Positions 1,606-44,998 of a stretch of DNA of 64,000 nucleotides are shown here, piece by piece. The notes below the pieces were generated by a model. The model saw only the letters and a program-made list of their open reading frames with translations, was not told the origin of the DNA and made no database searches. How positions within the stretch are numbered: the stretch's first letter is position 1; each line of letters begins with the position of its first letter. The stretch covers positions 32,001-96,000 of the IMG/VR virus record IMGVR_UViG_3300014208_000024; one strand, given 5' to 3'. Both the position numbers and the translations under genes were made by a program. Source of the stretch: a virus. Taxonomy: Duplodnaviria > Caudoviricetes.

Positions 1606-1732
1606 AAAGGGGTATAGAATAAACAGGTTGTCTTGGTTGCAAATCCTGGAGTTTAACCAGGACCCATTGAACTAAAGTCAATTGCTCTACACAGAGCTAA
1701 TTTGCGAAGTAACTGTCTAAATTGCCACCTTT
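1606..1732 (-). ncRNA. Y-RNA-like element Y1 enclosing an intact tRNA-like body with UUA anticodon
   Basis: Family stem GGTGGCAAT...AGTTACTTCG; inner cloverleaf ending ACCA. Confidence 0.7.
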
Positions 1733-9289: not shown

Positions 9290-9519
9290 AAAAATTATGT
9301 AGATTTGATCCTAACATAAATTTTCTAATCAGGTTGAATTAAAGAATGTAGAGTTTTTTGTTTTTTTAATCATAGGAATTTTTTTTCAAACAAATTTCTT
9401 AAGTGGATTTTTCCACCTTTGTCTTAAAAGACTCTTTAAAATAGATATAAATATCTTCCTACTATAATAAATAGTAAAAAAAAATCTCAACCCTTTCGAA
9501 TTGAGATTTTTATAAAACC

Positions 9520-10250
9520 CTGAGATTATAGGTTTAGTGAGTCAACTTTCGGGGGATTATTGGTTCCCCACCTTATCCACATACCTTGCGGCATGTACCA
9601 ACTCAATCTCGATTGGTTAGACCAATCACCTCTTTCGTCATAAACTACTCTACTGCTACTACCGCCATAACAAGAGTGCCCCCCTGCCATAACATTTCAC
9701 AATAATCCGTTAAACCTTGCGAGTCAAACGTCCCCAGTTCAACCGAAGTTGCCAGGATCTGAGAGACCTTTCGCCTATAACGCCAGCGGAACTTTTGCTT
9801 GCTTGAATTTTTTTCATAAAATTGAAGTTGTGCTTTTAATTGAAGATGTGCCGCTGGAACAGCTTCGTTCCTTTTGGGAACGAAATACTATACACCCTCT
9901 GCGCCCTTTTGCATCGGTACGCTCTCACCTTCGCCGCCCTGTAACTCTTACGAGAACGAGAACTCCAAAGATAAATGGAACACGCTCTAAAGCTTGCTAA
10001 ACCTTGAACATTATTCCTCGGCTTTTCCTATTGCCCCTTTCGGAGATCAACCGCCTCAAGCACTTCAGAGACGATATTTCACTCAGCAGTTGCCCTTGTG
10101 AAATGTACTAACCTATTGTATGCTCGACTTCTTTTCAAAAGCGACAAGATATTAACCTCGCCTTTATCCTGGTCACCCAGTTTATTTTCCTGACCCTTTC
10201 GGATCAGGCTTGACCACCAGTAGGTTGTCAACGACAGCACACTGCCATAA
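9520..10250 (-). ncRNA. Large structured ncRNA, GOLLD-like (about 730 nt)
   Basis: GC-rich non-coding island with many GNRA/UUCG hairpins, own promoter, boxA and terminator; size and tRNA-proximal phage context fit GOLLD. Confidence 0.6.
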
Positions 10251-10370
10251 ATTTTTTATCAATATTTTAAAGAACGTATCTTACTTAATTTTCTACTCTA
10301 TACGCAAAGATAAGAAAAAAGTTTCAAAAAAACAAGTTTTTTTTATTTTTTTTTTAAAAAACTTTTTTTA

Positions 10371-10454
10371 AGAGACGTAACCAGGCTGCTCAACCACTAC
10401 CCTTGCTTTCTTCCGAACCTGGGGGAGTTCGTAGGAGCCTGCCTGTTACGCTTT
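10371..10454 (-). ncRNA. ffs: Small SRP (4.5S) RNA
   Basis: Long hairpin with CAGGTTC-GGAA-GAAAGCA domain IV motif; boxA and promoter upstream. Confidence 0.85.
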
Positions 10455-15780: not shown

Positions 15781-15927
15781 AACAGGGAAAATTTATAAGA
15801 GTTTGTTTTACGTGCTCTAACCGACTGAGCTATCCCGCCATTTTCCTTTTATTTGTGGCGGGAGCAGGATTCGAACCTACGGCGACGGCATTATGATTGC
15901 GAAGTAACTCTCATTGTTGCCACTGTT
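15781..15927 (-). ncRNA. Y-RNA-like element Y5 (permuted tRNA, Met CAU loop)
   Basis: Family stem; GCA-ATCATAA-TGC. Confidence 0.75.
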
Positions 15928-15945
15928 TTATCTTAAATATGTTAA

Positions 15946-16098
15946 AAATTAGGGAATTCTTCGCAGAATCTGTTTTTAAGCGCTCTAACCAACTGAGCTA
16001 TCCCCGCATTATTTTTTATTTAGAGCGGGGAACAGGATTCGAACCTATGGCCTCTGTCTTGGAAGGACGATGAAATTCTACATTTTGCCACTAATTTT
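15946..16098 (-). ncRNA. Y-RNA-like element Y6 (permuted tRNA, Gly UCC loop)
   Basis: AGTGGCAA/TTCCCT stem; GTC-CTTCCAA-GAC. Confidence 0.72.
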
Positions 16099-42073: not shown

Positions 42074-42251
42074 TTTTCATATTCTTTTATTTGCAAGAAC
42101 AAAACTTGGTTTTCCCAGGCAAACTGAATTGTTTTTGTGTTAATTCTTTCTGTAATTTGTGCACTCATATTATATTTTTAAAACAATATAAAAAAAAATC
42201 CCCCCAAAATCAAGAGATTTCAGAGGAATTTTAGAAACGAAACGAAACGAG

Positions 42252-42324
42252 CCCGACCAGAGGGATTCGAACCCACAACCATCTGTTTTAGGGACAGTTG
42301 CTCTGCCAATTGAGCTATGGAAGG
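42252..42324 (-). tRNA. tRNA-like gene with CUA (amber) anticodon, degenerate acceptor
   Basis: CTGT-CCCTAAA-ACAG; two acceptor mismatches, C33. Confidence 0.55.
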
Positions 42325-43290: not shown

Positions 43291-43335
43291 AATAAAATTT
43301 TAATTTAAGTTATAACCGCACAACATGTGCAATCG

Positions 43336-43409
43336 AAGGAAAGACAGGACTCGAACCTGCGACCAAATCGGTTCTAGAAACCGTTGCTCTGCCACTGAGC
43401 TACATTCCC
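43336..43409 (-). tRNA. tRNA with CUA (amber) anticodon
   Basis: CGGT-TTCTAGA-ACCG; canonical D and T arms. Confidence 0.7.
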
Positions 43410-43417
43410 TTATTAAT

Positions 43418-43548
43418 TAATCGAGACATAATCGAGACATTAATCGAGACATTGTGTCCCGATTATGTCCAGATAAACCATTTTTTAACACTAATCCAGA
43501 CATATTCTGGACAAGTTGTCCAGAAAAATGTCCAGATTATATTGTCCC
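43418..43548. repeat. Cluster of about 9 direct and inverted TGTCYNGATTA-like repeats
   Basis: TAATCGAGACA x3 tandem, then TGTCCCGATTA, TGTCCAGATAA, TAATCCAGACA, TCTGGACA, TGTCCAGA x2. Confidence 0.75.
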
Positions 43549-43753
43549 CCCAGCCGTGAATCGAACACTCGACCTCCTGCACGTTAATAAAACACTCCTG
43601 TTCAAAACAATTTCATTCAGACTTTACATTAACAGCTTCTTAATGCTCCACCCTCTTTACTTTTGAATCTCCCACTTGTATCCCACCTATTCAACTTGTA
43701 TAGCTAACACAAATCTTTCGGTGACAGGCGCTCTGCCACTGAGCTATGGGGGG
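43545..43753 (-). ncRNA. tRNA body with about 130-nt insertion replacing the anticodon loop
   Basis: CCCCCCA/TGGGGGG acceptor, D and T arms, CCTG/CAGG stem enclosing insert. Confidence 0.65.
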
Positions 43754-43759
43754 TTATTT

Positions 43760-44209
43760 TTATTCGTTTATCATTCCAAACTTATCAAAGTACTTTAAAG
43801 GTCTCATTTTTTTACCTTTCACATAGAATCCCCATTTATGATAAGGTCTTCCACAAAACAATATTGTCCAGGCACCTTCTTTTGGTATTTCCAAATAGTG
43901 TTTTTTCTTTGCATCTGCAAACCATAGCCTCCATGCAGTTGCTTTTATTTTTCTACAATTATTCACATCTGGATTATCTGGATCATTTGGTACAACATTA
44001 TAATACCAACCCTTCAATATCATTGAAATAAGATTACAAGAATGATCATGAAAAAATCTTTTATCATCTGATCTTATCCATTTATGAATCCTTATAGAAT
44101 AATTAAAGAAAATAAATGACCACCTAATAAGGTATGGGTTATTTTTATCTTCACCCATTTTTTCAGCCCATCTTATTTGAAAGGTTTTTAATTTATTGTA
44201 CGGTTTCAT
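43760..44209 (-). CDS. Cupin-like phage protein
   Basis: FHDHSCNLISMILKGWY...KKHYL...WTILFCG. Confidence 0.6.
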   Translation of the reverse strand: MKPYNKLKTFQIRWAEKMGEDKNNPYLIRWSFIFFNYSIRIHKWIRSDDKRFFHDHSCNLISMILKGWYYNVVPNDPDNPDVNNCRKIKATAWRLWFADAKKKHYLEIPKEGAWTILFCGRPYHKWGFYVKGKKMRPLKYFDKFGMINE

Positions 44210-44636
44210 CTTTTATTGCTATTAATTCCATTTCTACTAATAAATCACTTCTACAAAGTTTTGCTTCTACACAAACTGAAGCTGGATAAGCTTTTAAACC
44301 CATTTCTTCATAAAATTTCTTTCTTATTATATTAAATTCTTCATAATCACGATCAATATCTCGAAGATATATTGTTGTTTTTATCACATTCTTCCAACTT
44401 ATCCCTTCGTTTTCTAAAATTCCAGTGATATTTTTAAACATTCTTTCAGTTTGTTTTTTAAAATCTCCTTTATATAATGTGGACCCATTTTCTCCAATAC
44501 TTGCTGTTCCAGATATAAAAAACATTTCTGTATCATGTTTAATTTTTACAGACATTCCTCTACTGAAAGCTGAAGGTTTCTCATAATTATAAGCCTCTAG
44601 CATTGTTGAACTTTTTAACTGTTTCATAATATACAT
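44193..44636 (-). CDS. RidA/YjgF/Rut family protein
   Basis: FISGTASI...VIKTTIYLRD...PASVCVEAKLCR.DLLVEMELIA. Confidence 0.88.
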   Translation of the reverse strand: MYIMKQLKSSTMLEAYNYEKPSAFSRGMSVKIKHDTEMFFISGTASIGENGSTLYKGDFKKQTERMFKNITGILENEGISWKNVIKTTIYLRDIDRDYEEFNIIRKKFYEEMGLKAYPASVCVEAKLCRSDLLVEMELIAIKDETVQ

Positions 44637-44654
44637 TTATTTGATTAATAATTG

Positions 44655-44800
44655 TGGCTTGAGTTGATTATGAATCAACATCTTGCATTGTAGTCGGAAC
44701 TCATTAATAATGCGTTTTACAAACGATTTGCGTTTCAGTGGCCTTTTTACTCCGTCCTCTTTAACGATACAATGTTATTTTAACATTAAACTACCAAGCC
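44655..44800 (-). ncRNA. tRNA body with 75-nt insertion in the anticodon loop
   Basis: GGCTTGG/TCAAGCC acceptor, ATTGTA/TACAAT stem, GTTGA-TTCATAA-TCAAC T-arm. Confidence 0.6.
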
Positions 44801-44808
44801 TTATTTTG

Positions 44809-44880
44809 TAGCTGCTGGAGGAATCGAACCTACAACCCTGGATAACTATTTCCAGAATTTAACTCCATCATTTCGCAATG
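44809..44880 (-). pseudogene. Degenerate tRNA-like sequence (8-nt loop AATAGTTA)
   Basis: T-arm intact; CTGGA/TCCAG stem; 5' acceptor unclear. Confidence 0.35.
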
Positions 44881-44998
44881 TGTGCTACACATTGTTTTTT
44901 TACATGTTTTGCAAACTTTACTCACAAACAACTACAGCTGATTGTTGTTTGCTTTCATCATTCACTCCACAATCTGAAACGTGTTAAGCAGCCATTTG

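Follow-up and report, generated by a model that had tools for sequence, protein, structure and literature searches.

Valine-accepting tRNA-like structures (TLS-Val) are known from tymoviruses such as TYMV (PMC9976931; PMC7749636), in which they terminate the viral RNA genome at its 3′ end and have a pseudoknotted acceptor arm. We compared these and other tRNA-like RNAs with a 209-nt tRNA-shaped gene of a giant groundwater phage. Judged from its sequence, the phage RNA shares with TLS-Val a viral and probably non-decoding character, A35, C36, usually A73, an anticodon-like loop, and a tRNA-shaped fold. The anticodon-loop criterion applied to TLS-Val finds AAC at 43583–43585 of the phage DNA, with A73 at 43545. 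In contrast to TLS-Val, the phage RNA is encoded by an internal gene of a dsDNA phage; its acceptor stem is an ordinary 7-bp helix, its D arm is complete, it has a large additional domain, and its gene is linked to that of a cupin.

Tandem comparisons can be drawn with two further groups. Lak megaphages carry tRNA genes with "enigmatic" introns (Devoto et al. 2019; PMC6784885; bioRxiv 10.1101/356790), and eukaryote-mode tRNAscan gave their oversized tRNAs Phe, Gly, Thr, and Tyr identities (PMC6784885). Both those cases and ours are oversized tRNA-shaped genes of very large phages with conserved extra sequence that matches no Rfam family, whereas the Lak genes, as described, come with no valine signature, cupin linkage, or non-decoding argument. 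YrlA and other bacterial and phage Y RNAs (RF02553; PMC4201824) are likewise non-decoding, contain a tRNA-like module, and occur in large phages; however, the tRNA-like part of YrlA is distal to paired 5′ and 3′ ends that bind Ro60 (PMC4201824), whereas the ends of the phage RNA form a normal acceptor stem and the RNA has no RF02553 match.

The phage RNA and tmRNA have in common a tRNA-like acceptor and T arm and a large internal domain, but the phage RNA lacks G3:U70 and a tag reading frame and retains a full D arm and anticodon stem. Group I introns sit in bacterial tRNA genes, namely those for tRNA-Leu (UAA), fMet, Ile, and Arg. There, as here, extra sequence interrupts the anticodon loop in a tRNA gene of bacterial type, but the phage insert is 143 nt long with two simple helices, has no G before its 3′ junction and no recognisable core, and matches no Rfam group I family at E ≤ 10. 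It also differs from the archaeal-type bulge-helix-bulge intron in lacking the two 3-nt bulges and the 4-bp helix, and no EndA-family endonuclease is encoded in the phage genome.

Architecture and conservation of the RNA gene

The window is the whole stretch of DNA analysed, 64,000 nucleotides corresponding to bases 32001–96000 of a 372,283-bp IMG/VR phage record. Coordinates refer to the window unless another record is named. The RNA gene has the following parts:

43545–43753, minus strand: whole tRNA-shaped RNA gene, 209 nt, from C1 at 43753 to discriminator A73 at 43545 (sequence; model R1, 217.7 bits)
43747–43753, minus strand: 5′ strand of the acceptor stem, CCCCCCA; partner TGGGGGG at 43546–43552 (sequence)
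43730–43744, minus strand: D arm, with GCTC stem, AGTGGCA loop containing G18 and G19, and GAGC stem (sequence)
43724–43728, minus strand: 5′ strand of the anticodon stem (P1), CCTGT; partner GCAGG at 43576–43580 (conserved pairing)
43684–43723, minus strand: insert helix P2, CACC (43720–43723) with GGTG (43684–43687), enclosing a hairpin at 43696–43712 with loop UAGCU (RNAalifold consensus)
43590–43683, minus strand: insert helix P3, a long irregular arm, GGATAC (43678–43683) with GTGTTT (43590–43595) (consensus fold)
43581–43589, minus strand: single-stranded junction J3/1, 9 nt, UAUUAACGU (unpaired in the consensus fold)
43553–43570, minus strand: irregular T arm, with GAGTG, TTCGATT loop, CACGG, and an extra C (sequence)

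The acceptor stem is a perfect 7 bp followed by A73. It begins with C1-G72, and position 3:70 is C3-G70; the absence of the tmRNA pair G3:U70, already stated in a preliminary description of this DNA, is thus borne out. U8 and A9 precede the D arm, whose stem pairs are retained throughout the relatives in an 11-sequence alignment, and the variable loop is AGGTC. That description had called the acceptor, D, and T arms canonical, which holds for the first two. The T stem, GAGTG/CACGG, can be drawn with purine-purine mismatches or with a 2-nt bulge, and the acceptor strand is preceded by an extra C. Adding two bases to the 5′ strand and one C to the T stem of the phage's tRNA-Arg(CCU) would give a similar stem. 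At positions 50:64 and 51:63, the orthologous copies have G·A and A·A (L043) or G·U and G·U (L046). The CCA end is not encoded in the gene.

Between the two anticodon-stem strands lie 143 nt. The gene had been described as a tRNA body whose anticodon loop is replaced by a structured insert of about 130 nt. Body and insert are confirmed, with the size now 143 nt, but part of the loop remains: the 3′ half, U-A-A-C-G-U, is retained unpaired within J3/1, comprising a U33-like base, A34, A35, and C36 (43583–43585), G37, and U38. In the consensus fold, P1, P2, and P3 meet flush at a three-way junction: neither P1 and P2 nor P2 and P3 are separated by unpaired bases, and the 9-nt strand connects P3 to P1. 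Within P3, an internal loop places AAGTAAAG (43655–43662) opposite GAATGAAAT (43610–43618), and this AGUA/GAA arrangement, by its sequence, resembles a loop E/sarcin-ricin motif. The tip of P3 is a hairpin at 43626–43646 (CATTAA/TTAATG), which had been proposed earlier and is kept in relatives, where one-sided changes preserve the pairing. A second proposed hairpin, TTGAAT/ATTCAA, is not kept in L043, and covariation supports another pairing.

The sequence alone proves little, since its folding energy is ordinary (z = −1.7 for the whole RNA and −0.9 for the insert) and standard tRNA models miss the gene: neither default ARAGORN nor the Rfam tRNA model RF00005 reports it, even at E ≤ 10. A search of 43400–43900 with all Rfam families, group I and tmRNA included, gave no match at E ≤ 10, in line with the earlier remark that no group I core is recognisable. 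Support for the structure comes instead from conservation and covariation in relatives. The RNA gene, insert included, occurs directly after the cupin gene in two further lineages (L042–L045/L054 and L046), and the orthologs at L043:4456–4662 and L046:525–731 align end to end with 43545–43753. Mean column identity across the three versions (window, L043, and L046) is 84%, and similarity between the window and L043 ends just past A73, where the adjoining DNA no longer aligns. The P1 pairing is the same in all three and covaries across the family. The RNAalifold consensus of the three sequences contains compensatory changes in 14 of 54 pairs, among them U-A to C-G and G-C to A-U in P2, for which the consensus in the three lineages is CAYC/GRUG.

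The same picture emerges from the 11-sequence alignment, in which 92% of pair cells are paired, versus 35–48% when partners are slid by 1–3 columns, and 44 of 54 pairs show a two-sided change; the P2 region (alignment helices 4 and 5) is 95–100% paired and P3 (helices 6–10) 84–93%, with two-sided changes in each of helices 6–10, although these counts are flattered because the distant members were fitted to the model. Independent minimum-energy folds of 10 divergent members gave the same layout of a hairpin, a long arm, and an 8–10-nt tail, and the insert sequence itself is little shared among divergent members. When the insert by itself was used as an nhmmer query, the genome yielded no second copy and 36 cupin loci yielded no relative. 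Being single-copy, the insert is not a mobile repeat. At the level of sequence comparison, these alignments show selection on the RNA gene and on its fold. The preliminary description had named an insert absent or unconserved in relatives as grounds for regarding the gene as a simple pseudogene; this check, now run, found the insert conserved and favours a functional RNA for the close relatives.

Other candidate features were considered and set aside. In long-intron mode, ARAGORN called a tRNA-Lys(UUU) whose intron would span 115 nt and whose variable arm would span 26 nt, which we rejected since the ACAGG strand is unconserved in L043 and L046; such a tRNA would also be unneeded, the phage already having three tRNA-Lys(UUU) genes. 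A hammerhead-like CUGA...GAAA is unconserved between lineages, a 5S-rRNA-like three-way junction finds no Rfam support, and a partial tandem duplication of the 3′ half (ACAGGAG.. versus GCAGGAGG..) is unconserved and confined to this copy.

The look-alike family in large phages

A covariance model built from the window, L043, and L046 sequences matches tRNA-shaped genes of 188–227 nt near the same cupin gene on other large-phage contigs. A structure-based scan together with inspection of all cupin loci yielded 27 distinct curated members; L021/L030 (L066) scores with the model and has no clear N-A-C tail, and is excluded from the 27-member counts. C1-G72 is present in all 27 (and is invariant in the 11 aligned sequences), as are A35 and C36, while A73 occurs in 26 and U38 in 23. 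In terms of sequence, then, the collected members show a family defined by C1-G72, A73, invariant A35-C36, and near-invariant U38. The window copy carries this hallmark as C1-G72, A73, and the tail AACGU, that is, N-A-C-N-U directly 5′ of the 3′ anticodon-stem strand. Base 34 varies (A in 12 members, U in 11, G in 2, and C in 2), only 15 of the 27 have U33, and 8 have a pyrimidine (U) at position 37. Across the family, the features lost are the 7-nt loop, the U33 turn, the purine at 37, and a regular T stem at 49–51:63–65.

The 5′ side of the anticodon loop ranges from 2 to about 150 nt across the family, and the distance between the anticodon-stem strands is distributed as follows:

7 nt: L086 and L016 (A33 or G33)
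8 nt: L007, L012, L014, L015, L024, L033, L036, and a 92-nt copy near L018 (in L072)
9–12 nt: L005, L090, and L063
42 nt: L001
77–160 nt: the remaining members, including the window copy (143 nt)

Expansions also occur elsewhere in the molecule. They lie in the D loop of L024, L033, and L034, at position 26 of the 92-nt copy near L018, and in the variable arm of L090; in L001, L002, L005, L012, L016, L033, L034, and L088, the 5′ strand of the T stem is bulged or carries an insert. Unlike introns at a fixed site, these expansions fall at many sites, some of them inside helices, and look like the expansion segments of structural RNAs.

Two near-complete genomes bear on the role of the family. 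The first, G005 (the record of L006; 216,899 bp, 93% complete), contains no ARAGORN tRNA, yet the cupin gene is present, and about 3 kb upstream, at 129339–129527, lies a look-alike that is the only tRNA-shaped gene found there. The second, G016 (317 kb, 99% complete), encodes 60 tRNAs, including Val-GAC, Val-CAC, and Val-UAC, and its look-alike lies beside the cupin gene, 200 kb from these ordinary valine tRNAs. Retention of the look-alike both in a phage without tRNAs and in one with three valine tRNAs settles the question of tRNA supply.

Comparison by blastn with cultured phages returned only 24-nt T-arm matches, scans of viral contigs with exact or degenerate patterns gave nothing or chance matches only, and a metagenome scan recovered the L043 lineage plus two chance matches. 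Our literature search found no description of a valine-type, cupin-linked family, and the family of cupin-linked tRNA-Val look-alikes is apparently undescribed. A 270-nt tRNA-shaped gene with an anticodon-region insert of about 195 nt lies just upstream of the valine look-alike of L004 (L004:1699–1968); it has no C1 start and belongs to another class.

The cupin partner and the case for a valine-tRNA mimic

The RNA gene follows an apparent operon on the same strand, in which we distinguish:

43760–44209, minus strand: gene for a 149-aa cupin-fold protein, 6 nt upstream of the RNA gene (PHROG 4786, E = 4.8e-28)
44193–44636, minus strand: Rid/YjgF-like gene (Pfam Ribonuc_L-PSP, PF01042; E = 3.6e-22), overlapping the start of the cupin gene
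44655–44800, minus strand: oversized tRNA-shaped gene in the same operon (sequence)
44809–44993, minus strand: a second oversized tRNA-shaped gene in the same operon (sequence)

PHROG 4786 is annotated as "cysteine dioxygenase". An AlphaFold model of the 149-aa protein is a beta-barrel cupin (pLDDT 90), its invariant residues are H54, D55, H56, and H104, and a Foldseek search with the model retrieved generic cupins only and no RNA-related enzyme. The protein has 463 relatives at E ≤ 1e-20. Its closest homologs (85% identity) are encoded on contigs with the same gene order, all of which carry the RNA gene with its insert, and the order Rid, cupin, RNA recurs in L042–L045. At least 20 of 23 distinct cupin loci have a family RNA within about 3 kb, placed directly before the cupin gene, directly after it, or one gene away depending on the phage; such varied placement is more in keeping with a pair acting in trans than with a cis signal. 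The two oversized tRNA-shaped genes of the operon start with G1 and hence belong to a different class from the valine look-alike; the one at 44809–44993 contains a GAGUAAAG motif and is conserved in L042:2543–2725. Upstream in the window are also a Pth2-like gene and several other odd tRNA-shaped genes. For the contigs encoding the cupin homolog P0005 (L090–L092), NCBI labels one cupin-homolog source as a Planctomycetota MAG protein; the P0005 contig carries the look-alike and a ParB-like gene, and may be a phage contig binned into a MAG. In L091, a gene for a SpoU-type RNA methyltransferase lies two genes upstream.

We propose that the RNA made from this gene is probably a stable tRNA mimic that has valine identity, takes no part in decoding, and works with the cupin, and that the 143-nt insert is a permanent expansion rather than an intron. 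The positions retained by the look-alikes coincide with the published identity set for valyl-tRNA synthetase, A35, C36, A73, and G45 (PMC9976931). U38 also fits an origin from a valine tRNA, since the loop of the phage's ordinary tRNA-Val is CUUACAU. Conversely, the features listed above as lost across the family, from the 7-nt loop to the regular T stem at 49–51:63–65, are those that the ribosome and EF-Tu need. Tested as an elongator tRNA, the window gene failed on several counts: the stem strands do not enclose a 7-nt loop with U33 and purine 37, there is no regular 5-bp T stem or 12-bp acceptor-T stack, and the standard models miss it. From what is established about EF-Tu, the irregularity at 49–51:63–65 would be expected to impair EF-Tu contact here. 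Of the three possibilities raised in the preliminary description, a tRNA-scaffolded effector RNA fits best, given the conserved and structured insert, the retained valine bases, and the lost decoding features. Against the mimic proposal, the minor valine determinant G20 is absent, the window copy has a U at the U33 position, a purine at 37, and an anticodon AAC matching GUU, and the cupin fold gives no hint of an RNA-related activity.

As a mimic, the RNA would be co-transcribed with the cupin gene, as suggested by the 6-nt gap and by the lack of a promoter-like site between the two genes. RNase P and RNase Z would excise it, and CCA would then be added, none being encoded. Host valyl-tRNA synthetase could recognise A35, C36, A73, and G45, while its defective T stem, its lack of a U-turn context, and the bulk of its arm would make the RNA a poor partner for EF-Tu and the ribosome. 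It may then act jointly with the cupin metalloprotein as a substrate, carrier, or guide. A more specific version of this scheme is tentative and less likely: the host synthetase might charge the RNA with valine, and the RNA, kept off the ribosome, might then serve as a dedicated carrier, offering the cupin metalloenzyme either the valyl group or a base of the RNA itself, with the Rid-like and Pth2-like proteins handling the product.

The first alternative, which we consider unlikely, is that the gene encodes an intron-bearing tRNA-Val(AAC), from which P2-P3 is excised at the 31/32-33 junction by an endonuclease or by self-cleavage, and whose halves are joined by RtcB to give a tRNA that decodes GUU. 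The phage does encode RtcB, a ligase used elsewhere in tRNA splicing, and the tail U-AAC-G-U is a legal 3′ part of an anticodon loop in the window copy. A spliced product would be useful, since AAC matches the commonest valine codon of the phage, GUU (29.7 per 1000), and the only ordinary tRNA-Val is UAC. Oversized "intron-bearing" tRNAs have, moreover, been reported in Lak megaphages (PMC6784885). However, searches at E ≤ 10 matched neither group I nor any other ribozyme family, the consensus fold is without a bulge-helix-bulge motif, and an EndA-type endonuclease (PF01974) is absent from the 372-kb phage genome, in a search that gave matches in control genomes. We know of no group I intron as small as 143 nt. 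Further, the 5′ boundary has no conserved sequence across the family, and excision would leave the T stem mismatched and one nucleotide too long. Relatives that lack the insert do not resemble a spliced product either, having loops of 7–12 nt, A33 or G33, or an extra base, and the expansions of other members lie elsewhere (D loop, position 26, variable arm, or T stem). Finally, G005 keeps the gene without any tRNA genes, and G016 keeps it in addition to three valine tRNAs. The "unusual intron" suggested earlier is therefore disfavoured.

A second alternative treats the RNA as a decoy or sponge that mimics tRNA-Val to occupy ValRS or a tRNA-Val-directed defence nuclease, without serving as a carrier, so that its linkage to the cupin would be incidental or regulatory. 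The pattern of conservation lends this some appeal, because the features kept (A35, C36, U38, A73, and the elbow) are recognition features and those lost are needs of decoding, and phage tRNAs with altered anticodon loops are known to evade host nucleases. Yet we know of no valine-specific anticodon nuclease, and a decoy leaves unexplained both the near-constant adjacency to one cupin gene and the compensated conservation of a clade-specific insert. We regard it as distinctly unlikely.

The position of the RNA 6 nt past the cupin stop codon, with no promoter-like site in between, would also suit a cis-acting processing or stability signal, in which the tRNA shape, as in t-elements or mascRNA, would serve only to direct RNase P and RNase Z to the cupin transcript for cleavage. 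Such a signal needs neither the invariant A35-C36-N-U38 nor a conserved 143-nt domain, and the placement of the RNA before, after, or one gene off the cupin gene across the family indicates a trans-acting partner; we therefore find a cis role highly improbable. A decaying tRNA pseudogene disrupted by junk DNA is scarcely credible: the default ARAGORN and Rfam tRNA models do miss the gene and its T stem is defective, but gene and insert are kept in three lineages at 84% identity with 14 compensated pairs, while flanking DNA beyond A73 is unalignable between the window and L043. The earlier suggestion of a tmRNA-like molecule is rejected on the full D arm and anticodon stem, the lack of G3:U70, and the lack of an ARAGORN or Rfam tmRNA match.

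Large phages contain many odd or oversized "tRNA" genes that gene finders skip or that are filed as intron-bearing. At least one class of these genes forms a coherent family, with a valine signature, loss of decoding features, clade-specific expansions, and a fixed protein partner, and it occurs even in a phage without tRNA genes. As a caution, look-alike genes should not be counted in phage tRNA inventories or in arguments about codon supply. If valylation and action with the cupin are true, the RNA would be a DNA-phage counterpart of the valine-accepting tRNA mimics of plant RNA viruses, and a first function would be at hand for a very common small cupin of large phages. If the RNA is indeed a carrier, the locus would exemplify a reaction module, widespread in large phages, that depends on a tRNA but not on the ribosome.

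Other RNA genes and the surrounding phage genome

The phage genome contains 46 ARAGORN tRNA genes, nearly all on the minus strand. No ValRS was found in a search of the genome. Genes relevant to tRNA maturation and further RNA genes are located as follows:

Genome G000:C1:10068–11324, minus strand: RtcB RNA ligase gene (180 bits)
Genome 283652–284089, minus strand: gene for a nucleotidyltransferase of the CCA-adding/poly(A)-polymerase family (94.6 bits)
Window 1634–1706, 42251–42324, and 43335–43409, all minus strand: three stop-codon suppressor-type tRNA genes (ARAGORN)
Window 9517–9900, minus strand: full-length GOLLD RNA (Rfam, 226.6 bits)
Window 10370–10453, minus strand: small SRP-RNA-like match (Rfam, 42.3 bits)
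Window 15856–16007, minus strand: tRNA-shaped gene with an implied insert of about 80 nt (the Rfam tRNA model spans 152 nt, 31.2 bits)

The suppressor-type tRNAs of the window are one UUA (ochre) and two different CUA (amber) species, and the phage also encodes a tRNA-Leu with A34 (AAG) at genome 22497–22579. Downstream of the RNA gene, a 145-aa gene has no relatives among viral contigs. Between the 209-nt RNA gene and a CUA suppressor tRNA lies a repeat block (43410–43540) with 3–4 copies of ATTAATCGAGACAT and several TGTCCAGA/TCTGGACA inverted repeats. The block is partly conserved in L046 and looks like a cluster of protein-binding sites before the suppressor tRNA gene.
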